Translations under genes and position numbers: made by a program
In this document: positions 3,523 to 56,697 of the stretch, piece after piece
Numbering within the stretch: the first letter of the stretch is position 1
How the letters are laid out: every line of letters begins with the position of its first letter
Notes under the pieces: model-generated
Database searches by the model: none
What the model was told of the DNA's origin: nothing
Seen by the model: the letters and a program-made list of their open reading frames with translations, nothing else
NCBI GenBank assembly: GCA_021787535.1
Contig: JAJYLR010000001.1
Location: 19,648 to 83,647 of the forward strand
Direction: 5' to 3'
DNA length: 64,000 nucleotides
Source: a bacterium
GTDB taxonomy: Bacteria; Patescibacteriota; CPR2; UBA1875; JAJYID01

Positions 3523-3593
3523 TAGGTGGTCAATCCAAGTTTGCCTACGATGTTACTGATTCTGTTTGTAATTTACATAAATCGTAATTTCTT

Positions 3594-20246: not shown

Positions 20247-20263
20247 CCTTTTCCTGTCATTCC

Positions 20264-32538: not shown

Positions 32539-34323
32539 ATGGCAGTTGGTAATGAGAAAAAGTTAGAAGATTTATTAGTCAAGCTGGGGTTAGTCACACA
32601 AAAACAGCTTGACCTTGTTAGGGTTGAGAGCGCTGAAACAGGGAAACCGGTTCTTGAGATTTTAAAAGAGATGCCGGAGATTTCTAAAGAAAGTTTAACA
32701 AAGGCCATGGCAGTTGCTATGGAACTGCCTTATGTCGATTTGTCTCAGAAAAAATTAGACAAAGGTATTTTAAATGTTATCAGCAGGGACATCGCTCTTA
32801 AGTATAAGATTGTTCCATTTGGCAAAGTAGGGGATTTTTTAAATGTTGCTATGGCAGACCCAAACAATATCGTAGCCATAGAATACATTGAGAAAAAAAC
32901 AGGAATGAAACTCAAGCCATACTTTGCTTCGGACGAAAGTATAAGTAAAGCCATTGGGCAATATGATGATTATTCAGTCGAGGTACAGAATGTTTTAGGT
33001 ACCTTGGAAAAAACTCCTTCTCTAGACTTGAAGGAGGATAAAGAGCATGAGAAGGATAAAGAGGGAAATGCGGCTGTTATTACGCAAGATGCTCCAATTA
33101 CTAGAGCTTTAAACACTATCTTAGAGTATGCCGCTAAATCCAGGGCATCAGATATTCATATTGAGCCAAGAGAAAAGGCAATCAAAGTTAGATATAGGAT
33201 CGATGGCATTCTATACAACACTATGACACTGCCTAAACATATCCATCCCGCCCTAGTTTCTCGAATAAAAATTTTGTCAAATCTGAAAATTGATGAGCAT
33301 CGCGTACCTCAGGACGGCCGTTTTCAGCTCAATCACGACAACCGTGAGATAGATTTGCGTATTTCCGTTACCCCCATCGTTTATGGTGAGAAAGTAGTGA
33401 TTCGTCTGCTTGACAAATCAACTGGTATCATAACGCTCGAGAACCTTGGTATTAAAGGCAGGGCCTATAATATTATTGAAGAAGGGACGAAAAAACCTCA
33501 CGGTATGGTACTTGCTACAGGGCCTACGGGCTCGGGAAAATCGACATCGCTTTATGCAATACTATCAAAAATCAATAAACCGAGTGTCAATATTATTACC
33601 GTTGAAGATCCGGTTGAGTATAATATCGAAGGAATTAATCAGATTCAAGTCAATAATGCTGTGGGACTTACCTTTTCTTCGGGGCTTCGTTCTATTTTAC
33701 GCCAGGATCCGGATGTCATTATGGTTGGAGAAATTCGCGACAAGGAAACAGCTGAACTTGCGGTACAGTCTGCATTAACCGGACATACTGTGTTATCAAC
33801 TCTTCACACAAACTCGGCGGCAGGGGCGCTGCCACGCCTGATAGAAATGGATATCGAGCCATTTTTGATTGCTTCCACCGTTAATACTGTTATTGCCCAA
33901 CGTTTAGTTCGCACGATTTGTGAAAACTGTAAAGAAGAGTATAAAGCTAGTGTGGCTCTAACAAAGGCGATTAAAAAATCACTCGTTAACATCTTGCCCT
34001 CAAAGAAAGATCCGATTTCAAAAACCAAGGATCTTGGATTTGATAAATTGCCGAATATGGAAGATGAAATTTTTACTTTATATAAAGGCAAAGGATGCGA
34101 TCAATGCAAAAATACCGGTTATTGGGGGCGCGTAGGTGTTTACGAGATTTTCAATGTCAATGAAAAAATCGAGGATCTCATTACAAAGGAAGCTACTTCA
34201 AGTGATATTCAAGACCAGGCCATAGAGGATGGGATGATTACCATGCGCCAAGACGGCTTTTTAAAAGCTTTGGCGGGAATTACGACTTTGGAAGAGGTAG
34301 TAAGAACAACAACAGAAGACTAA
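32539..34323 (+). CDS. pilB: Type IV pilus assembly (extension) ATPase PilB/GspE
   Basis: N-terminal GSPII_E_N domain. Walker A LATGPTGSGKSTSLYAIL. Tetracysteine CDQC...C. Asp/His boxes. Confidence 0.9.
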   Translation: MAVGNEKKLEDLLVKLGLVTQKQLDLVRVESAETGKPVLEILKEMPEISKESLTKAMAVAMELPYVDLSQKKLDKGILNVISRDIALKYKIVPFGKVGDFLNVAMADPNNIVAIEYIEKKTGMKLKPYFASDESISKAIGQYDDYSVEVQNVLGTLEKTPSLDLKEDKEHEKDKEGNAAVITQDAPITRALNTILEYAAKSRASDIHIEPREKAIKVRYRIDGILYNTMTLPKHIHPALVSRIKILSNLKIDEHRVPQDGRFQLNHDNREIDLRISVTPIVYGEKVVIRLLDKSTGIITLENLGIKGRAYNIIEEGTKKPHGMVLATGPTGSGKSTSLYAILSKINKPSVNIITVEDPVEYNIEGINQIQVNNAVGLTFSSGLRSILRQDPDVIMVGEIRDKETAELAVQSALTGHTVLSTLHTNSAAGALPRLIEMDIEPFLIASTVNTVIAQRLVRTICENCKEEYKASVALTKAIKKSLVNILPSKKDPISKTKDLGFDKLPNMEDEIFTLYKGKGCDQCKNTGYWGRVGVYEIFNVNEKIEDLITKEATSSDIQDQAIEDGMITMRQDGFLKALAGITTLEEVVRTTTED

Positions 34324-34352
34324 AAATATTAATTTTTAATTATCAAATTCCA

Positions 34353-34742
34353 ATGATCAATCAAATCTCAAGTACCAATAAGGAAGAAACAAAATATGAT
34401 TTAGTTGAGAGGACTGCAGTATTTGGTGAATCTATTCTTGACTTTGTTGGGGGTGTCGAAAGAAATTCTATCAATAACCCATTAATAAGCCAGGTTGTTA
34501 GGTCTGGAACAAGTGTGGGGGCAAATTATTGTGAGGCAAATGAGGCGAATTCCAAAAAGGATTTTGTTCATAAGGTTAGCATCGCAAAAAAAGAAGCAAA
34601 AGAAACTATACACTGGCTCCGCATGATTATAAAAGTAAACTCTGCTCTCAGAGAAAGAGCTGAAATTTTGCAAAAGGAATCTCACGAGCTGGTTTTGATA
34701 TTTTCTGCTATAATGAGAAAAAGTACGGGTAGGGAAGTTTAA
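34353..34742 (+). CDS. Four-helix-bundle protein (23S rRNA intervening-sequence protein family, TIGR02436-like)
   Basis: SGTSVGANYCEANEANSKKDFVHKVSIAKKEAKETIHWL matches the family core motif. Confidence 0.7.
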   Translation: MINQISSTNKEETKYDLVERTAVFGESILDFVGGVERNSINNPLISQVVRSGTSVGANYCEANEANSKKDFVHKVSIAKKEAKETIHWLRMIIKVNSALRERAEILQKESHELVLIFSAIMRKSTGREV

Positions 34743-34860
34743 AATTTATTATTTAGCATTTGATTGAACATTGAGTTTTGAACATTGGAATTTTAATTAT
34801 AAGTCTTTGAATTTTCAACTGATGGTATTAAAATAAGAGTTATAAAGGAGGGCTTTACTA

Positions 34861-35934
34861 ATGCCTGAAGCAGCAAAACTAAAAATTGAAAACTTTCTGG
34901 AAGAGGTCATTAAAACTGATGCAAGCGATCTTCATCTAACGGTTGGGGTGCCGCCTATGCTTAGGATAGATGGCGCTTTGAAACCAATTGACGGCACCAA
35001 AGGGTTAACCGATAAAGATGTAAAAGATTTGACTTACTCTATTTTGGATGATGTTCAGAAAGATATTCTTGAACGTGACAAAGAAGTAGATTTTTCTTTT
35101 ACTTATGGGGATTTGGCAAGATTTAGAGCAAATGCTTACCATCAAAAAGGTAATATTGGTCTGGCACTTCGTTTAATTCCCGTAGCGATTCGCAGTTTGA
35201 CGCAACTTGGCATACCTAAGATAGTAGAAAGGTTCACTGAGTTTCCGCGCGGTTTAGTGCTTGTGACTGGTCCGACTGGTTCAGGTAAATCTACTACCCT
35301 AGCAGCTATGATCGATAAAATAAACACAGAACGGGCTTGCCATATTATTACGGTTGAAGATCCGATAGAGTATACTCACTCCCACAAGAAATCTTTAGTG
35401 GAACAAAGAGAAGTTCACTATGACACCCGTTCCTTTGCCGCTGCTCTCCGCAGCGTCCTACGAGAAGATCCTGATGTAGTTTTGATTGGAGAAATGAGAG
35501 ATCTGGAAACCATTGCTGCGGCAATCACCATTGCTGAAACCGGCCACCTGGTTTTAGCAACATTGCACACAAATAGTGCCGCACAATCTGTAGACAGAAT
35601 TATCGATGTTTTTCCTCCGCATCAGCAGCAACAGATTAGAGTGCAGCTTTCCAATATTTTACAAGGAATTGTTTCCCAACGGCTCATTCCGGCTATTGGA
35701 GGAGGCCGCTTAGCTGCAGCGGAGATTTTGGTTGCTACTCCGGCGGTCCGTAATATTATAAGAGAGCAAAAAACTCATCAGTTAGAAGCAGTGATCCAAA
35801 CAGGAGCATCAGAGGGTATGCAGTCTATGGATAGGACTTTAGCTAACCTTATTAAAGTCGGCCGTATTACCATGGATGAGGCGAAAGGTTATGCTATTGA
35901 TATTAAGGAACTTGAAAGACTTCTGCGTAAATAA
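34861..35934 (+). CDS. pilT: Twitching motility (retraction) ATPase PilT
   Basis: Walker A LVLVTGPTGSGKSTTLAAMI. PilT-specific AIRNLIRE-like motif AVRNIIRE. Confidence 0.9.
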   Translation: MPEAAKLKIENFLEEVIKTDASDLHLTVGVPPMLRIDGALKPIDGTKGLTDKDVKDLTYSILDDVQKDILERDKEVDFSFTYGDLARFRANAYHQKGNIGLALRLIPVAIRSLTQLGIPKIVERFTEFPRGLVLVTGPTGSGKSTTLAAMIDKINTERACHIITVEDPIEYTHSHKKSLVEQREVHYDTRSFAAALRSVLREDPDVVLIGEMRDLETIAAAITIAETGHLVLATLHTNSAAQSVDRIIDVFPPHQQQQIRVQLSNILQGIVSQRLIPAIGGGRLAAAEILVATPAVRNIIREQKTHQLEAVIQTGASEGMQSMDRTLANLIKVGRITMDEAKGYAIDIKELERLLRK

Positions 35935-36014
35935 AAACACGAAATAATAAAATAACAAAAATCGAGTCACGTGTTATTTAATTCATCAAGTTTATCGGTT
36001 ACTAAGTTGAAATC

Positions 36015-37226
36015 ATGAAAGAATTCAGTTACAAAGCAAGGAACAAAGACGGAACGGCCACGCAAGGTATTGTGGAAGCAGAGACAGAGCAAGCCGCATC
36101 GAATCTTTTGATTTCCAAAAACATTTTTCCTGTTGCCATTAAAGAAAGTTCTTCGTCTGCTTTCGGAAGTTTCTCTTTTCTGAAAAAGATCTCAAGAAAG
36201 GACAAGGTTTTCTTTGTGCGGCAACTTGCTACTATGACCGGTGCCGGATTGCCTATAGCGCAAGCACTGGCCACGCTTTTGGAACAGACTTCCAAACAAA
36301 ACGTAAAGAAAATGATAGAACAAATGATGCGCGATATAGAGGCGGGAGGCACTCTGTCCGCTGCTTTCGGGGCTTTTCCGGAAACATTCAATAAAACAGA
36401 TGTGAACATGATTGCTTCCGGAGAAGCGAGCGGAAAAATTGACGAAGTTTTGCTGCATATGGCTGATCAAACAGAAAAAAGCTATAGAACAATCAAAAGA
36501 ATCAGGACTGTTTTTATTTACCCTGCTTTTCTATCAGTTGTTGTGATAGGTATAGTGGCAGGTCTTCTTACCTTTGTTTTGCCTCAAATGGAAGATTTAT
36601 ATAAGGGTTTTGGTGCAAAACTCCCTCTACCTACGCGAATACTCATAGGATTTAGCCACTTTATCACCAAATATTTTATTTTAGTCATCTTAGTGCTCAT
36701 TGCTGTTTTTATCCTTCTCAGAATATACACGCGCACTAATGAAACAGGAAAATATATCTGGCATCGCCTAAAGCTCAATATTCCGCTTATAGGCAGCTTT
36801 ATTAAGCTGTCTTATCTCTCCATCTTTACTCGTACGCTTGCCAGTCTGGTATCTTCTGGTGTTCCGATTCTTGACTCTTTGCAGATAGTGGCGGAAGCTA
36901 TGCCGAACATTATTTATCGAGACAGTTTAGAGACGGTGAAAGATAAGGTGAAGCAGGGTAAAGCATTATCCACGGCCCTTAAGGATGATGAACTTTTTCC
37001 TATCCTTGTTTCGCAGATGATAGCGGTTGGTGAACAAACGGGTGAACTTGATAATATGCTGGCCAATATGGCCGAATATTATGATGATGAGCTTGATACC
37101 ATGACTAAGAACATGCAATCCTTGTTAGAACCGATCATGATTGTGGTGATGGGCGGTATTGTCGGCACTATTATCATCTGTATCCTGCTCCCAGTTTACA
37201 GCATCCAGAATTTTGTAAAACATTAA
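36015..37226 (+). CDS. pilC: Type IV pilus platform protein PilC/GspF
   Basis: Two GspF repeats, three TM segments, ~400 aa. Confidence 0.85.
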   Translation: MKEFSYKARNKDGTATQGIVEAETEQAASNLLISKNIFPVAIKESSSSAFGSFSFLKKISRKDKVFFVRQLATMTGAGLPIAQALATLLEQTSKQNVKKMIEQMMRDIEAGGTLSAAFGAFPETFNKTDVNMIASGEASGKIDEVLLHMADQTEKSYRTIKRIRTVFIYPAFLSVVVIGIVAGLLTFVLPQMEDLYKGFGAKLPLPTRILIGFSHFITKYFILVILVLIAVFILLRIYTRTNETGKYIWHRLKLNIPLIGSFIKLSYLSIFTRTLASLVSSGVPILDSLQIVAEAMPNIIYRDSLETVKDKVKQGKALSTALKDDELFPILVSQMIAVGEQTGELDNMLANMAEYYDDELDTMTKNMQSLLEPIMIVVMGGIVGTIIICILLPVYSIQNFVKH

Positions 37227-37281
37227 GGGATAAATCCGAAACTCTAAGCACGAAATTCAAAACAAAAAAATATAATCATCT

Positions 37282-37358
37282 CGTCATTCTGGCTTGGCCA
37301 GAATCAATGCGGCTTCAATGTAACGGCCCTGACAGATTCTGGATGAACCAGAATGACG
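37282..37358. repeat. Full-length family-1 palindromic element: cgtcattctgg...reverse core...36-nt spacer...forward core gattctgg-atgaa-ccagaatgacg
   Basis: Perfect 11-nt outer inverted termini. Between pilC and the pilin gene. Confidence 0.8.
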
Positions 37359-37477
37359 ACGAAGCTATACAACTTATAAAAATTGGTTCGATACTTGATA
37401 AATTCGTTAAAGTTTAGAATATTGAAATTTATGATTTGTAATTTATTTCGGATTTCGGATTTAATATTTAGGATTTG

Positions 37478-37531
37478 ATGATATTTTGCTCGCAAAATAT
37501 CATTGACACATCATAAGGACAATAGTTAAAT
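37478..37531 (+). promoter_or_regulatory. Major pilin promoter region: a perfect 12-bp inverted repeat ATGATATTTTGC-tc-GCAAAATATCAT (candidate operator) overlapping the -35 of a TTGACA-N17-TTAAAT promoter
   Basis: Exact palindrome at 37478-37503. The -35 is at 37503-37508 and the -10 at 37526-37531. Confidence 0.5.
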
Positions 37532-37584
37532 AGAGTTGTATTTATAAAATACAAATTGCCTTTTAAGGCGGGGAGGAGGTGAAA

Positions 37585-37989
37585 ATGAGAAAGCTAAAAA
37601 GTAAACAAGGTTTTACGCTTATCGAAGTAGTTGTCGTGATGGCTATTATTGCAGTTTTGGCTGTTTTGGTGATTGGAGCCATTACAGTAGCCAGAAATAC
37701 CCAGAAGGAAACAGTTCACAGGTCAAATGCCAGAACAGTACAAACTCAGCTTGAGGCATGGTATGCAAAGAATAGAAGTTACCCAGCAACATCAGGGACA
37801 GTTGACTTGAATGCCGCTATGACTTCTATGGGACAGTCAACATTTTCAAATGCCAGTGAATGTACAGGTACAGGAGGAAAACCTGGCGGAGGCACTGTTG
37901 CCTATTCAACTACGGGTTATACAATCACGCCTTATGATTCAGGATGTACTAATCCGCTCGGTTCATCAGACGTGTTGAGCAACCAATAA
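37585..37989 (+). CDS. pilA: Type IV major pilin (prepilin with class III signal: KQG, then FTLIEVVVVMAIIAVLA)
   Basis: Canonical N-terminal G-F-T-L-I-E methylation/cleavage motif. ATG at 37585 with a GGAGGAGG RBS. C-terminal Cys pair. Confidence 0.85.
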   Translation: MRKLKSKQGFTLIEVVVVMAIIAVLAVLVIGAITVARNTQKETVHRSNARTVQTQLEAWYAKNRSYPATSGTVDLNAAMTSMGQSTFSNASECTGTGGKPGGGTVAYSTTGYTITPYDSGCTNPLGSSDVLSNQ

Positions 37990-38175
37990 GATATATTTAT
38001 CTCACATAACTAGCCATGGCGAGAAAATTCCTCATCATGGCTGTTATGGTAGCTAATTTAGAAATAAATGACCATGATAAGGGATATGTTTCAGCACCGC
38101 CCAGCCCCTCAAAATTAATCAGACGCAGCTCTACATAGTAGAAAATAGCCAAAAAATACTTATACCTTAAAGTTT

Positions 38176-39033
38176 TTGTTATATAATATTTTTATGTATT
38201 TATATGTCATTACTCTCGTTATCTTTATCTTATTAGGCCTTATTACCGGCAGTTTTTTGAATGTTCTCATATACAGATTAGAAAACAAGAAAAGAAAAAC
38301 TCTTTTCGGACGGTCTTTTTGTCCTTCGTGCGGGCAACAAATTGCCTGGTATGACAATATCCCTATTATTTCCTGGCTGGTTTTGGGTGGAAAGTGCAGG
38401 AAATGCGGAAAGCAAATCTCATCTCAGTATCCGCTAGTAGAACTAGCGACAGGTTTTTTGTTTGCAGCGATCGGCCTGAAATTTTTGTTTCTGGGCGCTT
38501 TACACATAGGTATTGATTCTGGGCAAGCCAGAATGACGGCACCGGACATTTTAAATTTATTATTTTGGCTGTTTTTTACGGCGGGGTTGATCGTAATCTT
38601 TGTATATGATTTCAAGCACCAAATCATTCCTAATGAGATAATTTATACTCTTTTGGCAGCCGGGCTAGTATTTGTTGGGGTTGACACGCTATTTTTTGGC
38701 GGCTATCAGTATTTAATTGATCATTTGCTCTCTGGTCTTCTCGCCGGAGGATTTTTCTATGCTCTGGCCGCTGTTTCAAAGGGTAAATGGATGGGAGGAG
38801 GCGACATTAAGCTAGTTGCCTTTATGGGGTTGGTATTAGGTTGGCAGGGTCTGCTTGCAGCTCTTTACTTTTCCTTTGTTTTGGGGGCGGTTTTTGGACT
38901 GAGCGCGCTGGTTGCACACAAAAAAGCTCTCAGTTCGCGCATACCTTTCGGGCCTTTTCTGGTAGCCGGTACGTTCGTCGGCCTTTTTTTCGGCGAGCAA
39001 ATGGTTAGCTTTTATGTTAGAATGTTTTTGTAA
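38176..39033 (+). CDS. pilD: Prepilin peptidase PilD (A24 family) carrying an in-frame 23-nt repeat-core insertion
   Basis: GSFLNVLIYRL, tetracysteine CPSCGQQ...CRKCGK, catalytic Asp regions. The insert encodes [10 protein letters not shown]. Confidence 0.85.
   Translation: MLYNIFMYLYVITLVIFILLGLITGSFLNVLIYRLENKKRKTLFGRSFCPSCGQQIAWYDNIPIISWLVLGGKCRKCGKQISSQYPLVELATGFLFAAIGLKFLFLGALHIGIDSGQARMTAPDILNLLFWLFFTAGLIVIFVYDFKHQIIPNEIIYTLLAAGLVFVGVDTLFFGGYQYLIDHLLSGLLAGGFFYALAAVSKGKWMGGGDIKLVAFMGLVLGWQGLLAALYFSFVLGAVFGLSALVAHKKALSSRIPFGPFLVAGTFVGLFFGEQMVSFYVRMFL
38515..38537. repeat. Solo 23-nt family-1 core hairpin gattctgg-gcaag-ccagaatgac inserted in-frame in pilD
   Basis: Identical 23/23 to intergenic 26612-26634. 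Encodes D-S-G-Q-A-R-M-T. Confidence 0.8.
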
Positions 39034-39060
39034 GAATAAAGATTCAATTTTAGGATTTCT

Positions 39061-39774
39061 ATGATACGGAGGGTTAGAAACAAAAAAGGATTTACACTGG
39101 TTGAACTTTTAGTTGTGATGGGTATCATAGCAGTCCTCCTTACGCTTAGCTTTAGCGGTTACTTTGCGTACAGGAGACAAATGTTTGTTGAAAATCTGGC
39201 AAGCCAGCTTCAGACGGATATTAGAGATACCTTTGTTAAATCAATCTCAGTAAACGATAATGCTCCCTGTCCCGGCAGTCAGGCCGCAAAAGTCAGGAGC
39301 TTGAAAATACCGGTACAGAATCCCTTTACAGATTATTACATCACTGACTATTGCGATTCTAGCGGTAACATTCAGGTAGGACAAGCGGGGCTAACTCCAG
39401 TATCACCTTCTTCTACTATCACACCATCGAACAATCTTAGTTTTAACGAGCCGGCTAAGCTAAGCTTAACCGTGAACGGCATAACTCGATCTAACGGCTT
39501 TTTATGTCTGGTTTATTCCTCGCCATACGGTGAGTTTAGCGGTTATTATTATCCTACTCCAACAAATGGTTCCGGGGATCAATGTGATAGCGACGTACAA
39601 ACTTATTGGAAAAAACAATCTGACGGGGTCTTCATTGCAAGCCCATCACCGCCGCCGCCGGCATTTTCTGTAAGACAGACAGAGGAAGCGGAATTTATGT
39701 CATTGAATGATGCAAATATTAATAGTTTGGTTGATATATATCCTTCAGGGCAAGCCGCAGAGAAAAACCAATAA
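39061..39774 (+). CDS. Minor (pseudo)pilin with prepilin-type N-terminal cleavage/methylation domain
   Basis: KKGFTLVELLVVMGIIAVLL N-terminus. Confidence 0.75.
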   Translation: MIRRVRNKKGFTLVELLVVMGIIAVLLTLSFSGYFAYRRQMFVENLASQLQTDIRDTFVKSISVNDNAPCPGSQAAKVRSLKIPVQNPFTDYYITDYCDSSGNIQVGQAGLTPVSPSSTITPSNNLSFNEPAKLSLTVNGITRSNGFLCLVYSSPYGEFSGYYYPTPTNGSGDQCDSDVQTYWKKQSDGVFIASPSPPPPAFSVRQTEEAEFMSLNDANINSLVDIYPSGQAAEKNQ

Positions 39775-39782
39775 AGAAAGTA

Positions 39783-40337
39783 GTGATGAAAAAATTACTA
39801 TATCAAAAAAAAGGACAAAGTTTGGTAGAAGTAGTGATTGCCATGGCTGTTATAGCTGTTGTGGTAGTTGCTGTAATGATGCCCGTTCTTGCTTCCAGAG
39901 GACTTTTATATAACTCAGAGGATGTAACGAAGGCAACCTCTCTGGCGGAACAAGGTTTGGAGATAATAAAAAACAATAGAGATATCGGCTGCCAGTTTGA
40001 TGCCATAAATCCCGGCAACAGCGGCGGTACCTATGATATTTACGGCGATTTGCATAATCAGCGTTTAGATAATTCTTCTGCCGAACAATTAGTTCAAGAT
40101 ACCGGTCTCTCACAGCAGATTTATAGCTCTAATAGCGAGTACACTGGTTTTACTAGAAAAATTACTTTAACCAGTCTAGACAATGTTTCCTTTAATCCCG
40201 GTACTTTTGGCGGCATACCTTCCGATACATTCGATACAAAGGATCAATATTATTATGTGGAAGTGCAAGTGTCGAAAAATGGTTCTTCTTTATCTACAGT
40301 TTCGACTATTATGCTCAAAAAATGGAAAGACTACTAA
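39783..40337 (+). CDS. Minor pilin with prepilin-type N-terminal domain
   Basis: KKGQSLVEVVIAMAVIAVVV N-terminus. Confidence 0.7.
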   Translation: MMKKLLYQKKGQSLVEVVIAMAVIAVVVVAVMMPVLASRGLLYNSEDVTKATSLAEQGLEIIKNNRDIGCQFDAINPGNSGGTYDIYGDLHNQRLDNSSAEQLVQDTGLSQQIYSSNSEYTGFTRKITLTSLDNVSFNPGTFGGIPSDTFDTKDQYYYVEVQVSKNGSSLSTVSTIMLKKWKDY

Positions 40338-40897
40338 TGAAAAGAAGTTTGGAAAACAAAAAAGGATTTACATTAATTGAACTGATTGTGGCAATGGGGC
40401 TTTTTGCTATTATTTTAACCGCTTTCACTAGCTTTTTCCTGAATGCGTATAAGTTAGAAAGCACATATGTAGGAAAGGCAGATTTAAACCAAGAGGCACG
40501 GCTAGTCAGCGAGGTTTTTGCCAGATATGCCCGTGAGGCCAAAACAGTTACTCTGAGCGGTGATTGCACGAGCGGACTTTCTTGCCAGCCAAGCTTTGTA
40601 CTGCCTAGAGGCGATAGTGATACTGCTGTCATTAATGTTCAATTTGACGGCAGCGCAACAGCCGGCACTCCTTCTCACCGCACCTTAAACTTAGGGGTTA
40701 ATAGTTCACAAGCATACAACTTTCTTTCAAATAACATTGCCTTAGGCAGTTTGCGTATCCATCAACAAACAGATGTTTATCCTAAAATTCTAGAATATAA
40801 CTTTACTTTACAAAAAATAGTGAATGGGGTGCCATCGACTGCAAGCGGAGACCAAATCTACTTTAGCGGCGTTATTAATATGAGGAATGAACAATGA
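40322..40897 (+). CDS. Minor pilin (PilW-like) with prepilin-type N-terminal domain
   Basis: KKGFTLIELIVAMGLFAIIL N-terminus. Confidence 0.7.
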   Translation: MERLLMKRSLENKKGFTLIELIVAMGLFAIILTAFTSFFLNAYKLESTYVGKADLNQEARLVSEVFARYAREAKTVTLSGDCTSGLSCQPSFVLPRGDSDTAVINVQFDGSATAGTPSHRTLNLGVNSSQAYNFLSNNIALGSLRIHQQTDVYPKILEYNFTLQKIVNGVPSTASGDQIYFSGVINMRNEQ

Positions 40898-42348
40898 AGT
40901 ATTTGCGTATGCAAAACAATAGAGGCAATGTTTTAATTTTTACAATCTTAGTTGTAGTTATACTTTTTGTGATTATGAGTTCGCTATCGGTGCTGATGAT
41001 CTCGGAAATTCGCCAATCCGGCCAGATCGAAGACTCTGCGAACGCCTATTTGGCAGCTGAGGCCGGATCCGAGCGGGCCCTAAACTATGCGAATCATAGA
41101 ACTCCAATCTATGAAACTAATCAGCGTTTAGGGGCAGCTGCTAACTCACCGACTTATTCATTTGAAGTAAAAGAAGCTACCGCAGGGGGTTCTTTAAGCG
41201 ATGGTACTCGATGTGACACAAATACTGATCCTAATCTATATTATTGTTTTTATAGTGAAGGATATAGCGGTTCAGGTAAAATAGTTCGCAAACTCAGCGG
41301 TTACACAAGAATTAATAGTATCAACCAAACAACCGCTGTAGACTTTAGTACCTATCCTACACAGCCGCCATGGTCGCTCTTTCCTTCGTCTCCTTCTCAA
41401 ACAGTGAGCTTAATGGATATTACACCACCCGATCCCAGGCATGACACTTTAGTTTTATCCGGCCAAATAGAAGGGCTTAATGTTCCGTCTGCAGATCATT
41501 ATTTCGGGCTTCTAGATAGCGGATCAGGATTGGGAAACAGAAAGGGTATCGGCATGCATGTTTATAATTCAGGCGGCCAAAATATGATAAAGCTGATAGG
41601 TACAACCATTGATACTGATGTCGCGCCACCTGCATATACCCCCTACGATAATGGAGAAATTGCTTCAGGTCCTGGTACGGGCAATCCGATATCGATCCCA
41701 ATCAATCCCGGAGAAAAAATAAGCTTTGTTTTAACGTACAGAAGAGCAGCTTCAGATCCATGGGCGAATACTGCCACGCTGCAGGTGAATGATATTACAG
41801 ATCCTAATCATACTCATAACTATCCTTGTTTGGGTATTACGACATCTGTCTTTTCCGATAGAATTTTTAGCTATGCTCCGTTTTATGCTTACTTTTTAAG
41901 TCCCGGCAGCTATAAGCCGCGAGGGGGAACTGCAGGCGGTGCTCCGTATCTTCAACTGCAAGACAGTGGTCAGACTATTACCTTAGATAACTTTATTTTA
42001 AGTACCAGCGGATCAACGAGCGATACCTTAGCAACCGGTACATGGCTAAAACCCGGACAGTTTATAAAATCGCAAAGTGGCAACTACCTCCTTACTTATA
42101 GAACAAATGGCAACTTAGTGCTTACTAATGCGGGCGGTTCCGTGATTTGGCAAACAGGTACACTCAGTACGGCTGGGTATGCCAGCATGCAGATTTCAGA
42201 TGGCAACTTTGTGCTCTATACTCCCAGCTGGTGGCCCTACTGGGCATCAAATACAACCGGTCATCCAAACGCCTATTTAAAGGTAACTGATGACGGTCAT
42301 CTTAGAATCTATGATGCTAACAATAATCAAATCTGGTCCAGGCCGTAA
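40894..42348 (+). CDS. PilX-like minor pilin fused to a C-terminal bulb-type (B-lectin, mannose-binding) lectin domain. Candidate pilus tip adhesin.
   Basis: PilX_N-like N-terminus (GNVLIFTILVVVILFVIMSSLSV...AYLAAEAG). The C-terminus carries three B-lectin-like subdomain motifs: QSGNYLLTYRTNGNLVL, QISDGNFVLY, VTDDGHLRIYD. Confidence 0.7.
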   Translation: MKYLRMQNNRGNVLIFTILVVVILFVIMSSLSVLMISEIRQSGQIEDSANAYLAAEAGSERALNYANHRTPIYETNQRLGAAANSPTYSFEVKEATAGGSLSDGTRCDTNTDPNLYYCFYSEGYSGSGKIVRKLSGYTRINSINQTTAVDFSTYPTQPPWSLFPSSPSQTVSLMDITPPDPRHDTLVLSGQIEGLNVPSADHYFGLLDSGSGLGNRKGIGMHVYNSGGQNMIKLIGTTIDTDVAPPAYTPYDNGEIASGPGTGNPISIPINPGEKISFVLTYRRAASDPWANTATLQVNDITDPNHTHNYPCLGITTSVFSDRIFSYAPFYAYFLSPGSYKPRGGTAGGAPYLQLQDSGQTITLDNFILSTSGSTSDTLATGTWLKPGQFIKSQSGNYLLTYRTNGNLVLTNAGGSVIWQTGTLSTAGYASMQISDGNFVLYTPSWWPYWASNTTGHPNAYLKVTDDGHLRIYDANNNQIWSRP

Positions 42349-42360
42349 AACTTTTGAAAT

Positions 42361-43323
42361 TTATACTTGACCTTGACTATGAAATTTTTGATGGATTTCT
42401 TTAAGCCGCGTGTTTGTTATGTGAGTATAAATCTGTGTAGTAGTGATGGAAGAGTGGCCGAGCATGGCTTGGACGGAACGGATATCGGCGCCGTTGATTA
42501 AAAGATCGGTGGCGAAAGAGTGGCGTAGCATATGGGGTGTCACTTTTTTGGTTATTCCGGCTAAACGGGTATATTTTGAGACAATGCGCTGAATGCTTCT
42601 AGGTGTAAGCCGCATATATTCACCTTCATCCAAGCCGTCTTGCATACCTGAGAAATGAATAAAAAGCGGCGCGGCATTATCGGTTCTTTTGGTTAGATAT
42701 CTTTTGAGTTTTTTAATAGCGCTATCTGAAAGAAAAACTACCCTATCCTTACCGCCTTTGCCGCGAACATTGAACTCTCCTCTTTCCAGATTGACTTGCT
42801 CGCGATTTAAGCCGGCAAGTTCGCTCACTCTGAGTCCCGTGGAAAAAAGTGTCTCCAGAATTGCTGAATCCCTGAGAATAATCACTTCTTTTTTTGAAGG
42901 AAATTTCTCAGGAGTAGCGAGTAAATCTTCAACTTCCTCGATTTCCAAGAATTCTACCTGTTTTCTTTTCATTTCCCCGAGCTCAATCTTTTCAGCAGCC
43001 AGAGATTTAATATCTCTTTTGGCCAAGTATTTTAAAAATGCACGCAGAGCAATGATGTGATATGTTTGAGTGATTTTAGCCAGATTACCGCCAAGATCTG
43101 TACTTAACCGATTTAAATAGAGCCGGTATTTTCTGATAAGATCGCTTGTAATTTGTTCGGGCTTAAGTTCACGGCTGCGCCCCTCTTCGGCAAAGTCAAG
43201 AAAACGCCCCAGATAATGTTCGTAGTTTCTGATGGTGAGTTCAGAGTGGTTTTTCTCTATCTCGCAGTATTCTAAAAAGTCGCGAACCAGGTCATTTACA
43301 GTCATACTTACATTGTACGACAC
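42361..43323 (-). CDS. xerD: Tyrosine site-specific recombinase XerC/XerD family
   Basis: C-terminal catalytic region HMLRHSFATDLLINGADIRSVQAMLGHSSITTTQIYTH with the catalytic Tyr. N-terminal SAM-like domain. Confidence 0.85.
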   Translation of the reverse strand: MSYNVSMTVNDLVRDFLEYCEIEKNHSELTIRNYEHYLGRFLDFAEEGRSRELKPEQITSDLIRKYRLYLNRLSTDLGGNLAKITQTYHIIALRAFLKYLAKRDIKSLAAEKIELGEMKRKQVEFLEIEEVEDLLATPEKFPSKKEVIILRDSAILETLFSTGLRVSELAGLNREQVNLERGEFNVRGKGGKDRVVFLSDSAIKKLKRYLTKRTDNAAPLFIHFSGMQDGLDEGEYMRLTPRSIQRIVSKYTRLAGITKKVTPHMLRHSFATDLLINGADIRSVQAMLGHSSITTTQIYTHITNTRLKEIHQKFHSQGQV

Positions 43324-43335
43324 TTTTTTCGACTT

Positions 43336-43749
43336 GTCATTCCGACCGCCACTATGCTAATGAAAAGTGGAGGAATCCCTTACTCGTAGTATAATCTACT
43401 TATGGCCAAAAATTATATTTTCCATGTTCATATATTAGCTAGTGAGAGTGGTACTCTATACATTGGTGTCACCAATGACCTAGTTAGAAGAATATATCAA
43501 CACAGGAGCGATTTAATAGAAGGATTTAGCAAAAAGTATCAATGCCATAAATTAGTTTATTATGAAGAAACATCAGATGTTGAAAGCGCAATTAAAAGAG
43601 AAAAACAAATTAAAAATTGGAGCAGAAAGAAAAAAGAAGGTTTGATCAAAACCAAAAACCCAACCTGGAGAGATTTATCAGGTGATTTATAAAATATTAA
43701 TACAAAGGGATTCCTCCGCTCTACTTTTACGGAAGTTGGTCGGAATGAC
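43336..43749. mobile_element. Family-3 palindromic element carrying a GIY-YIG nuclease gene in its central loop. Outer arms are gtcattccgacc / ggtcggaatgac; inner arms are ggaggaatccc / gggattcctcc.
   Basis: Both arm pairs are exact reverse complements. An empty counterpart lies at 50893-50980. Confidence 0.75.
43402..43692 (+). CDS. Small stand-alone GIY-YIG nuclease family protein (UPF0213/YhbQ-like)
   Basis: YIFHVHILASESGTLYIGVTNDLVRRIYQHR (GIY...YIG) with conserved Arg and Glu downstream. Confidence 0.8.
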   Translation: MAKNYIFHVHILASESGTLYIGVTNDLVRRIYQHRSDLIEGFSKKYQCHKLVYYEETSDVESAIKREKQIKNWSRKKKEGLIKTKNPTWRDLSGDL

Positions 43750-43761
43750 AAAGAGAGCTGT

Positions 43762-45195
43762 ATGAAAGCGGTTTTTACAAGCGTTATTTTATTAGCCGTT
43801 ATGGCCGGCATATTTCTCGCTCCTTATTTTGACGTTTCTATACTGAGCGTGGTTGCTCTTTTTGGCATTTTCTTTCTCCTTAGCTTGTCAGTCGTTCCTA
43901 AAAAATGGCTCTGGCTTTTCATGATAGTCATTAGTTTTCTCTTTCTCGGTATTTTTCGTTTTATCCAAGTACAAAACGCCATTTACAACCTCTCTTATCC
44001 AACTGATCAGGAGGTAAAGCTCCAAGGCCAGGTTGTTGAACCGCCGGAAGAAACGGATAAATCGGTGAAAGCCGTTTTGAAAGATGAGGCAAGGGGCGGT
44101 AAAATTATTTTGATTTTAAAACCCTTCACTAAGGTGAAATATGGCGACCGGCTGTCAGTGAGCGGCAAAGTTAGCATTCCGGCTCAAGAGTATCAAAATT
44201 CTCTTTTAGTAAAAGGTATTGTTTATGAGATGGCCTTTCCGCAAATAGAGCGGGCCGGACCGGGCAAAATGGATATTTCAATGAAAATTCAAAATGGCCT
44301 TTACTCTCTTAGAAACCGTTTTGAGGAGAGTATAAACAGCATATTTCCCGAACCGGAGGCATCATTTCTGGCCGGATTGCTTTTAGGGGTAAAAAGAAAT
44401 CTTCCTGCCTGGCTTACTCAAGATCTCAAAGCCAGCGGCACTACCCATTTGATTGCCCTTTCAGGGTTTAATATTACTGTCATCATTGAGGCATTAAGGA
44501 TAATCTTTAGGCGGCGCAGCGCCAAACTAAGTTTTTATATCCCATTGCTTGTTATTTTTGCTTTTGTGGTTATGACCGGTTCTTCGTCTTCGGTCGTCAG
44601 AGCCGGCATTATGGGAGCAATGATGCTTCTTACTTATCGGGTAGGACGGCAATCTTCAGCTGTCATGGCAATAGTTATTACGGCAGCTATCATGGTTTTC
44701 GCCAATCCTTTTATTTTGCGTTTTGATGCCGGCTTTCAGCTCTCTTTCGCCGCCTTTATCGGGATCATTTATTTTGCGCCTATGATTAGTATGTTTTTGC
44801 CTCTTAAACATGAGTTTGCAAAAGAAATGCTGGCAATGACCTTAGGCGCGCAGATCATGGCTTATCCTTTAATTCTCTATTATTTTGGCACCTTTTCTAT
44901 AGTCTCATCCGCTGCCAACTTAGTCGTTCTGCCTTTTATTCCATTTGTGATGCTGCTTGGTTTTGTGACGGCAGCTGTAGGAATGGTCTGGCAAGGACTG
45001 GGTTATGCTATGTCATTCACCGCCCTTTTTGCCTTAAAGGCAGTGATCGAAACAATCCATTTCTTTGCCCTTCTCCCTTTATCTTCCATAAGCGGTATCA
45101 GCTTTTCCGCATTCAACGCCACTCTCTATTATATAATAATTTTGGAATTGGTTTTTATCTGCAAGAGGCGTCTTGTAAGGAGGCGTCTTGCCTAA
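43762..45195 (+). CDS. comEC: ComEC/Rec2 DNA internalisation channel, membrane (competence) domain only
   Basis: Multiple TM helices, N-terminal OB-like region, competence motif region ASGTTHLIALSGFNITVI. Confidence 0.8.
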   Translation: MKAVFTSVILLAVMAGIFLAPYFDVSILSVVALFGIFFLLSLSVVPKKWLWLFMIVISFLFLGIFRFIQVQNAIYNLSYPTDQEVKLQGQVVEPPEETDKSVKAVLKDEARGGKIILILKPFTKVKYGDRLSVSGKVSIPAQEYQNSLLVKGIVYEMAFPQIERAGPGKMDISMKIQNGLYSLRNRFEESINSIFPEPEASFLAGLLLGVKRNLPAWLTQDLKASGTTHLIALSGFNITVIIEALRIIFRRRSAKLSFYIPLLVIFAFVVMTGSSSSVVRAGIMGAMMLLTYRVGRQSSAVMAIVITAAIMVFANPFILRFDAGFQLSFAAFIGIIYFAPMISMFLPLKHEFAKEMLAMTLGAQIMAYPLILYYFGTFSIVSSAANLVVLPFIPFVMLLGFVTAAVGMVWQGLGYAMSFTALFALKAVIETIHFFALLPLSSISGISFSAFNATLYYIIILELVFICKRRLVRRRLA

Positions 45196-46063
45196 AGAAA
45201 AAGGGGTAAAAAAGATTTTTCCCTTGTTCGCCCTTCCGATACTTTTGATTGCCTTTTTAGGGATTTGGTATTTTGTCTTTCTTCCGCCCAGCCGAGATTT
45301 AAAGATTATTTTCTGCGATGTCGGGCAAGGCGATGGAGCAATCCTCGAATTTCCGGGTGGCAGAACCGCCCTTGTTGATAGCGGACCAGATAAGAAAATT
45401 CTAGGATGTTTAGGCAAGAATCTGCCTTTTTACAGCAAGAAAATTGATCTTGTCTTTTTATCTCATGCGGACGCCGATCATGTAGGCGGTTTAAATTATG
45501 TTTTAAAACGTTATCAGGTGGGGCAAATCGTAGGAAGTGGCATTGGCAAAGATACTAAGGCGTATCAGTCTTTTTCCGACATTGTTAAGGAGCAGAAAAT
45601 ACCGGAAATCATAGCTCTCCAAGGAACGGAGTTTGACATTGCGCCTATGGCAAAAGTAAGGGTGTTATTACCCGGTAGCACATTAAATAACACAAGTTTA
45701 AATAACGCGTCTGAAATTCTGCAGGTGAGTTTCGGCAGAGAAAATATTCTCTTGACCGGCGATATGGAAAAGGAAGAAGCTGGCCTTTTTGCCAAGCTCT
45801 ATCCGGATCTTCATGCGGATATTATCAAAGTACCGCATCATGGCTCAAAATATTCTCTTGACGCAAATTTTTACAGCCGTCTTCATCCAAAATATGCGGT
45901 GATTTCAGTCGGCGCAAAAAACAGATACGGCCAGCCGCACAAACAAGTGCTGGATTTTTTAAAATCTAAAGCCATAAAGGTTTTCAGGACTGATAAGCAA
46001 GGGGATGTGCAGTTTGAAACAAACGGCACAGAGCTTGGCCAAGCGAACCCGGCTAGTTTGTAA
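45188..46063 (+). CDS. Metallo-beta-lactamase fold hydrolase corresponding to the ComEC C-terminal domain, encoded as a separate ORF with an 8-nt overlap and its own TM anchor
   Basis: HADADHVGG (HxHxDH), VPHHGS. Confidence 0.75.
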   Translation: MPKEKGVKKIFPLFALPILLIAFLGIWYFVFLPPSRDLKIIFCDVGQGDGAILEFPGGRTALVDSGPDKKILGCLGKNLPFYSKKIDLVFLSHADADHVGGLNYVLKRYQVGQIVGSGIGKDTKAYQSFSDIVKEQKIPEIIALQGTEFDIAPMAKVRVLLPGSTLNNTSLNNASEILQVSFGRENILLTGDMEKEEAGLFAKLYPDLHADIIKVPHHGSKYSLDANFYSRLHPKYAVISVGAKNRYGQPHKQVLDFLKSKAIKVFRTDKQGDVQFETNGTELGQANPASL

Positions 46064-46123
46064 AAAAAATTTTACTTTACTCAACCGCTTCATTATAATT
46101 ATAATGTTTAAAGGAGATAAAAA

Positions 46124-50813: not shown

Positions 50814-50892
50814 TAAGTTATTAGTTGGTAAGTTGCTAAGGATTATAAATTATTATGAAAAGCGACGAAAATCACATTTTAGACTCTTTCCT

Positions 50893-50980
50893 GTCATCCC
50901 GAGCGTTAGTCGAGGGATCTCTTATTTATCTCAGAAAGGGATTTCTCCGCTCGTCGATTCTCGAAGTCGGTCGAAATGAC
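50893..50980. repeat. Empty family-3 palindromic element: gtcatcccgagcg...cgagggatctc, a 16-nt central loop, gggatttctcc...ggtcgaaatgac. Same architecture as the GIY-YIG-bearing element at 43336-43749.
   Basis: Outer and inner arms correspond to those flanking the GIY-YIG gene. Between ruvA and ruvB. Confidence 0.7.
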
Positions 50981-50994
50981 AAGGCGGAGGCATT

Positions 50995-52029
50995 ATGAAA
51001 GTCAATCGCGACCACATTTTAGATTCGGAAGGATTTGAAGGCGAGGAAACTTTTGAGGAGACCTTGCGGCCGAAAAAATTCTCTGAGTATGTCGGCCAAA
51101 ATCAAGTCAAAAACAACCTGAAAATTACCATTGAGGCGGCAAAGAAACGAAAAGAACCAATTGACCATGCCCTTCTCTATGGTCCGCCAGGGCTTGGCAA
51201 GACTACTCTCTCGTCCGTCATTGCAAATGAAATGGGAGTTCAAGTGAAAGCGACGAGCGGACCGGCCATCGAGCGAGCCGGCGACCTGGCCTCAATCCTT
51301 ACCAATCTTCAGGAAAACGACATCTTGTTCATAGACGAGATTCACCGTCTAAATACTGTGGTTGAGGAGATCCTTTACCCGGCGATGGAGGACTTTATGC
51401 TTGATATAATCATTGGCAAAGGGCCGTCTGCGCGATCCGTTCGCCTTGACTTGCCAAAGTTCACTATCATCGGGGCGACGACCAAGATGGGCATGCTCTC
51501 CTCGCCTCTTCGCGACAGATTTGGTTTAGTCCATCGCCTGGAATTTTACGAGCCGGAAGATATCGAAAAAATTTTAAATCGTTCGGCCAAGATCTTGAAA
51601 ATCAAAATCGATAAAAAAGGCGCTCGAGAAATTGCCAAAAGGTCGCGCAAGACTCCCAGAATTGCCAATCGATTACTTAAACGGGTACGGGATTTTGCTG
51701 AAGTAAAGGGCAGCGGCGAGATTACAGAGGATATTGCGCGTCAGGCGCTGGAAATGCTTGAAGTCGATGAGCTGGGGCTCGACAACACCGACCGCAATTT
51801 GCTTGAGACAATCGTCCATAAGTTCGGCGGCGGTCCGGTCGGGCTAAATACTTTGGCGGCGGCGACTAATGAAGAGGTTGATACGATCGAAGAGGTTTAT
51901 GAGCCGTATCTTATCCAACTTGGATTTCTGGAGCGCACCCCGCGCGGCCGAAAAGCCACTGCTCATGCCTATAATCACCTTGGCGTGGCGAAGAAAAATA
52001 AGAAAAAAGAACAGCAGAAACTGCTATGA
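50995..52029 (+). CDS. ruvB: Holliday junction branch migration helicase RuvB
   Basis: Walker [13 protein letters not shown], sensor regions, C-terminal winged helix. Confidence 0.95.
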
Positions 52030-54534: not shown

Positions 54535-54990
54535 ATGAAAATAATAACAAGAAGCTCAGAAGAAACAGTTGACCTAGGAGAAAAATTAGGTAAATCCCTG
54601 AAAGGCGGAGAAGTTCTTGCCCTTTACGGTGACCTTGGCGGCGGTAAAACCCAGTTTACAAAAGGTATAGCCAAAGGACTTGGCATTAAAGATAATATTC
54701 TCTCGCCCACTTTCACCATTCGCCGTGAGTATAAAGGCAAGAAGTTAAATCTTCTGCATTATGATTTCTACCGATTTGAATTGCCGGACCGGGAGCTTAT
54801 TGAAAGCATGGAAGAAGGCATTAATCCTGACAATGTGACGGTGATAGAATGGGCGGAAAGGGTTGAGAAACATTTGCCCAATGATGCAGTTAAAATCAAT
54901 TTCAAATACATTTCGGAAAACGAGAGGGAAATAGAAGTTATGCCCGGCAGCCGGAATTTAGAAAATAAGTTTAGTAAGCTGTCATTCTGA
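54535..54990 (+). CDS. tsaE: tRNA threonylcarbamoyladenosine biosynthesis protein TsaE (YjeE)
   Basis: P-loop LALYGDLGGGKTQFTKGIAKGLG, SPTFTI, HYDFYRFE motifs. Confidence 0.85.
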   Translation: MKIITRSSEETVDLGEKLGKSLKGGEVLALYGDLGGGKTQFTKGIAKGLGIKDNILSPTFTIRREYKGKKLNLLHYDFYRFELPDRELIESMEEGINPDNVTVIEWAERVEKHLPNDAVKINFKYISENEREIEVMPGSRNLENKFSKLSF

Positions 54991-55010
54991 GGAACGAAGA
55001 ATCTCATGAG
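54981..55010 (+). repeat. 30-nt repeat gtcattctgaggaacgaagaatctcatgag, left copy. It supplies the ATG of the GIY-YIG gene.
   Basis: Identical to 55347-55376. Hairpin ATTCT-gaggaacga-AGAAT with GTCATTC-family ends. Confidence 0.8.
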
Positions 55011-55329
55011 TTATTATGTCTATATCTTAACAAATAGAATAAACAAAGTTCTTTATACCGGTATGACCAATAATTTAGAAAGAAGGATTTTCGAGCACAA
55101 AAATAAATTGGTTAAAGGGTTTACTGAGAAGTATAATTTGAATAAATTGGTATATTTTGAAGAATTTCCGGCGGCAAAAGAAGCGATCGAAAATGAGAAG
55201 AGAATTAAGGGCTGGGTAAGAAGAAAAAAGATTGCATTGATTGAGGCGAAAAATAAGAATTGGATTGATTTATCGAAAGAAAATAGATCCTTTGTCGTTC
55301 CTCCTCAGGATGACAATAACCAAGGATGA
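55006..55329 (+). CDS. Small stand-alone GIY-YIG nuclease family protein (UPF0213/YhbQ-like) inserted between tsaE and tsaB
   Basis: YYVYILTNRINKVLYTGMTNNLERRIFEHK. Confidence 0.8.
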   Translation: MSYYVYILTNRINKVLYTGMTNNLERRIFEHKNKLVKGFTEKYNLNKLVYFEEFPAAKEAIENEKRIKGWVRRKKIALIEAKNKNWIDLSKENRSFVVPPQDDNNQG

Positions 55330-55346
55330 AATATAACTCGACAACA

Positions 55347-55376
55347 GTCATTCTGAGGAACGAAGAATCTCATGAG
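55347..55376 (+). repeat. 30-nt repeat gtcattctgaggaacgaagaatctcatgag, right copy (direct). It supplies the ATG of tsaB.
   Basis: Exact direct repeat of 54981-55010. Confidence 0.8.
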
Positions 55377-56654: not shown

Positions 56655-56697
56655 GGGATTCCTCCGCTCGCTTTTCATAGAGTTGGTCGGAATGACA
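56655..56697. repeat. Solo right half of a family-3 palindromic element (gggattcctcc...ggtcggaatgac) upstream of rny
   Basis: Matches the right arm of the GIY-YIG element at 43707-43749. Confidence 0.65.

Follow-up and report, generated by a model that had tools for sequence, protein, structure and literature searches.

A small GIY-YIG nuclease gene between inverted hairpin units in a candidate-phyla genome: very probably a module of the Ssn/SRM type

The stretch of DNA analysed here (contig JAJYLR010000001.1, positions 19,648 to 83,647 of the forward strand), from here on referred to as the window, is 64,000 nucleotides (nt) long and contains a small GIY-YIG nuclease gene, here named ssn1, at 43402-43692 between two inverted hairpin repeats. 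In all likelihood this locus is an Ssn/SRM module, in which a nuclease gene (ssn) is accompanied by cognate inverted hairpin repeats (Ssn-related motifs, SRM). It is an already published kind of system, found here in a genome of the candidate phyla and with hairpin variants that have a long interior. The association between gene and hairpins has been independently discovered and was published in 2025 (Chenal et al., Nat Commun, PMC11893778), and the ssn1 locus extends the system to a small candidate-phyla genome.

The open reading frame (ORF) at 43402-43692 is on the forward strand, starts with ATG and encodes a protein of 96 amino acids (Ssn1), in which GIY-YIG (PF01541, residues 10-78, E = 1.4e-15) is the sole Pfam domain and for which no NCBIfam family was matched. 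The left flank of the gene (43334-43379) reads TTGTCATTCCGACC-(21 nt)-GGAGGAATCCC and the right flank (43707-43751), its inverted counterpart, GGGATTCCTCC-(20 nt)-GGTCGGAATGACAA. An earlier reading of the window, made from the sequence only, had given coordinates for the gene and for nested repeat arms on both sides of it, and these proved exact; the outer arms gtcattccgacc (43336-43347) and ggtcggaatgac (43738-43749) are complementary in 12 out of 12 positions and the inner arms ggaggaatccc (43369-43379) and gggattcctcc (43707-43717) in 11 out of 11. The same reading placed the gene in the loop of one long palindrome, a view that had to be replaced. Since the stretches between outer and inner arm are not alike when comparing the left and the right side, and since each side folds alone, the outer and inner arm of a side together make up one hairpin unit, and the reading as one long cruciform with ssn1 in the loop was rejected on these grounds. 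The anatomy of the locus is that of a gene between two inverted copies of one hairpin unit of ~45 nt, as follows.

43335-43379, plus strand: left hairpin unit of the ssn1 module; TGTC is its head and CCC its tail, and the basal stem ATTCC/GGAAT encloses an interior of 28 nt.
43390-43395, plus strand: TATAAT hexamer, 6 nt before the ATG of ssn1, a candidate -10 box by its sequence.
43402-43692, plus strand: ssn1, the gene for the 96-amino-acid Ssn-family protein, which has GIY-YIG as its single domain and a histidine at position 10.
43707-43750, minus strand: right-hand unit of the ssn1 module; it repeats the left unit in inverted orientation and ends 12 nt before the ATG of comEC.

A published protein of this kind, SsnA of Neisseria meningitidis, is a single-domain GIY-YIG protein of 94 amino acids (CDD cd10448) that binds the repeat CGTCATTCCCGCGMAVGCGGGAATCYRG (NTS) as single-stranded DNA only and cuts a few nt upstream of it (PMC11893778). 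Its affinity for the DNA hairpin is nanomolar while RNA is not bound, and it is inactive on double-stranded DNA, RNA and the complementary strand (PMC11893778). The mutants Y6A, Y17A and E64A kept binding and lost cutting, and deletion of ssnA raised transformation by NTS-bearing DNA about five-fold (PMC11893778). Three further homologues cut beside their own repeats, making four tested enzymes in all; the hairpins are (C/T)GTCAT-headed and tolerate loop extensions, and a survey with an SRM search pattern found at least one repeat near 71% of the homologues and repeats on both sides of 42% (PMC11893778). Small GIY-YIG proteins like Ssn1 had been called unexplained in the sequence-only reading; given four site-specific single-stranded-DNA nucleases in the Ssn family, one of which (SsnA) limits transformation, that description no longer holds (PMC11893778).

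Ssn1 is 56% identical (E = 4e-38) to a 94-amino-acid protein from Gallionella (locus L035), which has Tyr6, Tyr17 and Glu64 in SsnA numbering and whose gene has an upstream flank that equals the published NTS consensus in 28 out of 28 positions. Among solved structures only distant UPF0213 proteins match Ssn1, and weakly (1zg2, E = 1e-6); the YhbQ/UPF0213-like label first attached to the protein was rejected in view of this weak match, and Ssn1 is instead referred to the Ssn family.

More than 6,797 homologues of Ssn1 were found, and 80 genomic loci encoding relatives 52-66% identical to it were fetched from Patescibacteria, Acidobacteriota, Chloroflexota, Clostridia, Cyanobacteria, Omnitrophota, Ignavibacteria, Alpha-, Beta-, Gamma- and Deltaproteobacteria and others. 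For the 74 loci where both flanks were available, a plus-oriented unit was searched for within 200 nt upstream of the gene and a minus-oriented unit within 200 nt downstream. This revealed both units, each in the correct orientation, in 49 of the 74 loci and at least one of them in 65; of 398 control positions taken from these loci none had both, and ~3% had one on either side. The stem sequence varies between lineages (for example ATTCCCGCG, ATCCTGAGC, ACCCTGAAC, ATGCCGGAC and ATTGCGGGC), with at least 17 different 6-nt starts, while the GTC head, the pairing and the orientation of the units stay constant. Left and right unit have a common stem in 23 out of 54 loci, where 5.8 would be expected. 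When testing for co-evolution, protein identity was 0.61 within stem types and 0.57 between them, a difference that is significant by permutation but, being confounded by host phylogeny, carries little weight. The closest homologue of Ssn1 (74% identical, locus L082) is encoded between hrcA and grpE, is flanked by ssn1-type units and repeats a layout also seen in the window, a plus unit, the ssn gene, a minus unit and a second plus unit. Together, the census supports that the link between nuclease gene and flanking hairpins is real and general.

Hairpin units are also found far from ssn1. A structural search, with a unit defined as a GTCAT head, a stem of at least 5 bp beginning after GTC and then a C, gave 22 units in the window as compared to 1.5 +/- 1.2 (maximum 5) in 100 dinucleotide-preserving shuffles. 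About 16 of the 22 are located in the non-coding DNA, which makes up ~17% of the window, and many abut start codons. The outer-arm 12-mer is present in 4 exact copies and, when up to 2 mismatches are allowed, in 13 (2.8 +/- 1.7 in shuffles). One exact 12-mer, GGTCGGAATGAC at 24169-24180, is within coding sequence, has no nearby partner to form a hairpin and may be the relic of a unit or a coincidence. The proposed similarity between the arms held in a MAFFT alignment of nine ssn1-type units, three of them from relatives, which gave the consensus TTGTCATTCCGAsCGACT...GAGCGGAGGAATCCCTT and the compensatory stem variants ATTCC/GGAAT, ATCCC/GGGAT and ATTTC/GAAAT; in the two units of the ssn1 module a GTC head is followed by the basal stem ATTCC/GGAAT, which encloses an interior that varies, and by a C-rich tail. 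The units of the window fall into at least five stem families, with members starting at or spanning the following positions.

ATTCCGAsC...GGAGGAAT (ssn1 type): 43335-43379, 43707-43750, 50892-50981, 56655-56697 and 25400-25460.
ATTCTGAGG...AAGAAT (ssn2 type, see below): 54981, 55287 and 55347.
ATTCTGGC...CCAGAAT: 21569/21636, 23600, 26554/26609, 37283/37336 and 38516.
ATTCCCGCG-RAGG-CGGGAAT: 20256/20299 and 25474.
ATTCCGGA...TCCGGAAT: 9654 and 55679.

Two gene-less elements had been singled out from the sequence and both were recovered, a doublet of the same design at 50893-50980 between ruvA and ruvB with a 16-nt spacer in place of a gene, and a solo unit at 56655, which is of the ssn1 type and in minus orientation. 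The units outside the two nuclease loci are the following.

9653-9678, minus strand: ATTCCGGA-type solo unit, intergenic.
20255-20322, no single strand: gene-less inverted doublet of the ATTCCCGCG type, a perfect 8-bp stem in each unit and a spacer of 18-20 nt.
21569-21636, no single strand: inverted doublet of the ATTCTGRC type, apparently in frame within an ORF (start at 21138) for a tlyA-like methyltransferase.
23600-23621, plus strand: ATTCTGGC-type unit.
25400-25460, plus strand: ssn1-type unit with a long stable hairpin inserted in the loop (z = -3.4), forming a doublet with the next unit.
25470-25497, minus strand: canonical unit TGTCATTCCCGCGAAGGCGGGAATCCAG (z = -4.5).
26554-26630, no single strand: inverted doublet of the ATTCTGGC type, intergenic.
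37283-37357, no single strand: inverted doublet of the ATTCTGG type, intergenic.
38516-38537, minus strand: ATTCTGGC-type solo unit.
50892-50921, plus strand: left unit of the gene-less ruvA-ruvB doublet, stem ATCCC/GGGAT.
50938-50981, minus strand: right unit of the same doublet, stem ATTTC/GAAAT, separated from the left unit by the 16-nt spacer.
55678-55703, plus strand: ATTCCGGA-type unit in frame inside tsaB, read as the peptide CHSGLDPES.
56655-56697, minus strand: solo ssn1-type unit, 24 nt upstream of the next gene.

As compared to an orthologue without the insertion (L091), the unit in tsaB adds roughly PPCHSGLDPESKPL; this is the same phenomenon as the Rickettsia palindromic elements inside genes.

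An older class of repeats, the "CGTC-tagged REPs", was described by Di Nocera et al. in 2013 (BMC Genomics, PMC3733652) and includes dRS3 of Neisseria and RPE-4 and RPE-6 of Rickettsia. These repeats have an unpaired CGTC/TGTC head, a stem starting with AT and a CCA-like tail, form inverted dimers, occur as intragenic copies and "apparently lack a dedicated transposase" (PMC3733652). All their features, including a stem of 8-9 bp and a loop of 4-5 nt, are seen in the short units of the window at 20256, 25474, 37283, 55679 and 9654, while in the ssn1-type units, which retain head, tail and AT start, the basal stem is 5 bp and the interior long. The short units fold stably as single-stranded DNA (z about -4), and the one at 25470-25497, alone in the window, matches the published SRM pattern exactly and agrees with the NTS consensus in 27 out of 28 positions.

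Several points weigh against assigning the ssn1 locus to the Ssn/SRM system. Ssn1 is placed in the Ssn (cd10448) family by proxy, through the Gallionella protein, and no Neisseria entry was among the top 120 matches when searching with the betaproteobacterial homologue. The units flanking ssn1, those flanking a second nuclease gene described below and most of those near the closest homologues fail the published pattern HGTCWYN(0-2)YYVSBRHN(0-5)WNVSBRGN(0-2)RNCYNB because their interiors are too long; this pattern is a search heuristic, which matched within 200 nt at 20 of 75 homologous loci, and it misses the long-interior hairpins of this branch. By nearest-neighbour DNA energies the long-interior units that flank the genes form the 5-bp basal stem only, with z from +0.8 to -1.4. 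Finally, codon 10 of ssn1 (43429-43431) is CAT, a one-base change that puts a histidine at the first GIY tyrosine, a residue kept in 31 out of 32 aligned homologues, while the other catalytic residues (Y20, R30, H34, E67 and N86) are present. Since Y6A abolished cleavage in SsnA of N. meningitidis, this copy of the enzyme may, by analogy, bind without cutting.

A tblastn search revealed exactly one more GIY-YIG gene in the window, 47% identical to ssn1 (E = 9e-30) and here named ssn2. As anticipated for further genes of this kind in the sequence-only reading, this sole other copy within the window is flanked by oriented units.

54980-55003, plus strand: upstream ssn2 unit, GTCATTCTGAGGAACGAAGAATC, overlapping the stop codon of tsaE and ending 3 nt before the ATG of ssn2.
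55006-55329, plus strand: ssn2, an Ssn paralogue between tsaE and tsaB with the full set of catalytic residues.
55287-55315, minus strand: downstream ssn2 unit; the ssn2 ORF reads through this hairpin and has the tail RSFVVPPQDDNNQG.
55346-55369, plus strand: second ssn2-type plus unit, directly before tsaB.

The last of these units together with CTCATGAG is an exact 30-nt repeat of 54981-55010, and the direct repeat so formed, GTCATTCTGAGGAACGAAGAATCTCATGAG, brackets a 366-bp segment with ssn2 and its minus unit. Because the ssn2 units belong to another stem family than those of ssn1, the window holds two enzyme-hairpin pairs, ssn1 with ATTCCGAsC...GGAGGAAT and ssn2 with ATTCTGAGG...AAGAAT, which fits the published picture of many co-evolving pairs.

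Upstream of ssn1 are a type IV pilus/type II secretion-like cluster and xerC, and downstream are comEC and a gene for a metallo-beta-lactamase-fold protein (window ~33000-46100). This adjacency to genes for DNA uptake is probably not functional, since the neighbourhood is the same in the closest relative, where ssn is missing. When analysing the region for promoters, the TATAAT 6 nt upstream of the ssn1 ATG was left unscored by the promoter scan, there being no -35 match, and from its position it may be the -10 box of a leaderless transcript. The promoter TTGAAC-17-CATAAT of comEC in two relatives (L083 and L086; the TTGAAC hexamer also in L085) is absent in the window, and comEC may therefore be transcribed through ssn1. 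On the minus strand (43312-43340) the left unit has ATGACA as its head, and a TACAAT follows at a distance of 17 nt and is placed 6 nt before the ATG of xerC. This arrangement agrees with the consensus in 10 out of 12 positions, and xerC may have a leaderless transcript for which the left ssn1 unit provides the -35 box. The comEC genes of L083 and L086 show a geometry similar to that of xerC, with a -10 box 6 nt before the ATG, that comEC of the window does not have. Promoter-like matches around ssn1 are no commoner than in shuffles.

The mode of action has been shown for the four tested Ssn homologues, and by extension Ssn1 would bind the folded hairpin unit in single-stranded DNA only, recognising the (C/T)GTC head in its unpaired state, the stem with its AT start and the C that follows it, and would cut the head-bearing strand a few nt 5' of the head. 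With the flanking units in inverted orientation, the cuts are predicted just beyond the two ends of the ssn1 module and on different strands, the top one near 43330-43334 and the bottom one near 43751-43755. The ~20 further units of the window, as inverted doublets, as solo units and in frame within genes, would be potential recognition sites. Putative substrates are single-stranded stretches of imported transforming DNA and intermediates of replication or repair; the window encodes ComEC and type IV pilus genes.

Orthologous sites were compared between relatives, and for ssn1 the loci between xerC and comEC were fetched by means of the neighbouring ComEC. In the closest relative (L083/L088, ComEC 77% identical) the spacer is 129 nt long with neither unit nor ssn, its 21-kb region has no unit at all, and ruvA and ruvB overlap by 4 nt. 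In two further relatives (L085 and L086, ComEC 73% and 61% identical) plus units start exactly 12 nt after the conserved ATTGTACGACAC, as they do in the window, and tblastn found neither ssn nor a remnant of it in their spacers. At the site of ssn2, tsaE and tsaB are adjacent with nothing between them in L091, L095 and L097, an empty inverted doublet is found in L096, and plus units followed by a noncoding element are present in L090, L092, L093/L098 and L094. At ruvA-ruvB of the window, ~32 nt of the 5' end of ruvB are duplicated and diverged (50856-50887 and 50995-51026) on the two sides of the hairpin doublet; the upstream, dead copy is closer to the ruvB start of the relative, and the downstream copy is the live start, with a new ribosome-binding site GGCGGAGG. 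These comparisons establish that both module and units are subject to gain and loss among close relatives. A selfish element would be compatible with this, but transposition is not shown by it.

The noncoding element is an unannotated repeat of ~215 nt that recurs at various intergenic sites, in the window at 20938-21135 and 3593-3810 and in relatives at L082 1527-1740, L085 2402-2528 and 2552-2684, L086 3215 and 5874 and in L090, L092, L094 and L098. It consists of an A/T hairpin, CCACTTTTTTAGAAAAAGTGG, followed by AGTAAAAATCGCGGCT..CAAAGTGTCG..TTAACTCGC..AAAATTnTTTTTAAA..CCGATAGCCGC..CTTTGAAAAAATCATGCCGG. A plus unit is situated directly before the repeat in 9 of 11 copies, and in L085 two copies face each other between a plus and a minus unit. 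Its consensus fold shows weak structure and weak covariation. Rfam searches of the whole window at the gathering threshold and of L085 and L086 by E-value returned tRNAs only, and the hairpins of the window likewise match no known RNA family.

That the ssn module is a mobile element is an idea neither new nor demonstrated; already in the 2025 discussion a gene flanked by hairpins was likened to an insertion sequence and to RAYT/REP elements (PMC11893778), and literature searches for later work on Ssn mobility gave nothing beyond that paper. In its strong form the idea is that of an autonomous, selfish element spread by its own nuclease, with doublets and solo units as non-autonomous derivatives or landing sites, in analogy to RAYT/REPIN or to homing endonucleases. 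This is compatible with the Ssn/SRM reading, to which it adds the claim of mobility, and is regarded as possible and on balance rather unlikely. It is favoured by the empty xerC-comEC site of L083/L088 and by the tsaE-tsaB alleles, contiguous in L091, L095 and L097 and with an empty doublet in L096, by the closest homologue being at another locus (hrcA/grpE), and by Ssn being 52-66% identical across phyla when the neighbour ComEC drops to ~35% within candidate-phyla relatives. The exact repeat around the 366-bp ssn2 segment, the duplicated ruvB end flanking the ruvA-ruvB doublet, the in-frame insertions of units in genes and the inverted-repeat layout, which resembles an insertion sequence also according to the 2025 authors (PMC11893778), point in the same direction.

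However, when 14 units and doublets were searched for target-site duplications in the form of long direct repeats, only the ruvA-ruvB doublet had one, and the ssn1 module and the 12 others had none. Judged as an insertion sequence or a miniature inverted-repeat transposable element (MITE), the ssn1 module has the inverted terminal units and lacks both a transposase and a target-site duplication. Beyond its nuclease domain the protein has nothing that would provide strand transfer, ligation or recombination, double-stranded DNA is left uncut by the tested homologues, and Ssn1 itself carries Y10H. Classical homing would have no target in the empty alleles of L083/L088 and L091, which are without a hairpin, whereas the doublet-only sites of L096 and of the window (50893-50980) could serve. 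The plus units of L085 and L086, at the identical position without ssn or its remnants, are equally well explained by vertical inheritance and loss of the gene. The pair of autonomous and non-autonomous mobile elements proposed in the sequence-only reading thus stands as regards the gene-hairpin link, the gene-less doublets and solo units and the empty orthologous sites; the mobility itself, with no target-site duplication and no recombinase, is undemonstrated.

A more specific version may be put forward as a tentative proposal, doubtful to about the same degree, in which Ssn modules are active selfish cassettes and do not serve the host alone, as restriction devices against single-stranded DNA: the enzyme would nick single-stranded DNA beside its cognate hairpin, and recombination between units would copy or integrate the cassette into units or doublets already present. 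The 30-nt repeat at the 366-bp ssn2 segment and the recurrent layout of plus unit, ssn, minus unit and plus unit would then be footprints of such events, and the plus units would carry, in the ~215-nt noncoding element, a second recurrent passenger. If this is true, the orphan CGTC-REP superfamily would gain its missing mobilising enzyme.

It is highly improbable that the hairpins are generic REP-like regulators, acting as stabilisers of mRNA 3' ends, as terminators or as donors of promoters or ribosome-binding sites, next to which the nuclease gene is found by chance. REPs of E. coli have regulatory roles of these kinds, most units of the window are intergenic with many abutting start codons, and the head of the left unit gives the -35-like hexamer 17 nt from TACAAT before xerC. 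Against this stand the two-sided oriented association with ssn (49/74 as compared to 0/398 in controls), the stem that varies while head and orientation are kept, the promoter-like matches being no commoner than in shuffles, and SsnA, which binds the DNA hairpin at nanomolar affinity and not RNA (PMC11893778). Least probable of all is that the hairpins are REPINs that owe their mobility to a Y1 transposase of the RAYT/IS200 type and not to the GIY-YIG protein, since although Y1_Tnp (PF01797) is found in relatives near the pilus/xerC region (L088 4508-5191 and L085 464-1222), a RAYT-type mobiliser was rejected on account of the window having no Y1_Tnp homologue and of L088, which bears Y1_Tnp, having no GTCAT-headed unit in 21 kb, and no RAYT flanked by CGTC-type repeats was found by Di Nocera et al. 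(PMC3733652).

With the ssn1 locus as an Ssn/SRM module, the system would represent the enzyme side of the older CGTC-REP class (dRS3 and the Rickettsia palindromic elements), and filled, doublet-only and empty alleles at two orthologous sites, together with two enzyme-hairpin pairs in 64 kb, make mobility testable.

In comparison with known systems, the locus is most like the published Ssn/SRM modules, with which it shares a single-domain GIY-YIG protein of ~95 amino acids, a (C/T)GTCAT-headed hairpin with an AT-start stem and a C-rich tail, the inverted order of repeat, gene and repeat, many gene-less copies elsewhere and several enzyme-repeat pairs. It differs in its host, a candidate-phyla (WS5/Patescibacteria-like) genome and not a proteobacterium, in its cognate units, which have a 5-bp basal stem, a G.A-type interior and inserts of 13-44 nt, and in the histidine of Ssn1 at the first catalytic tyrosine. 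With the CGTC-tagged REPs of PMC3733652 the units have in common the unpaired head, the AT-start stem, the CCA-like tail, inverted dimers, in-frame intragenic copies and the absence of an associated transposase, but no dedicated enzyme was found in that paper, and the interiors of the units flanking ssn1 are long when compared to its families with stems of 8-9 bp and loops of 4-5 nt. The REP/REPIN-RAYT systems, derived from IS200/IS605, likewise have a single-copy gene, inverted flanking hairpins, dispersed doublets and recognition of a single-stranded hairpin, whereas the enzyme of the window is a GIY-YIG hydrolytic nuclease and not an HUH/Y1 transposase, with no known strand-transfer chemistry, and the head is GTC and not GTAG. 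The GIY-YIG catalytic fold is shared with homing endonucleases of the I-TevI type, with UPF0213/YhbQ and with SLX1, and the presence/absence polymorphism also recalls homing endonucleases; unlike the I-TevI type, Ssn1 has no separate DNA-binding domain and is not intronic, and its tested relatives do not cleave double strands.

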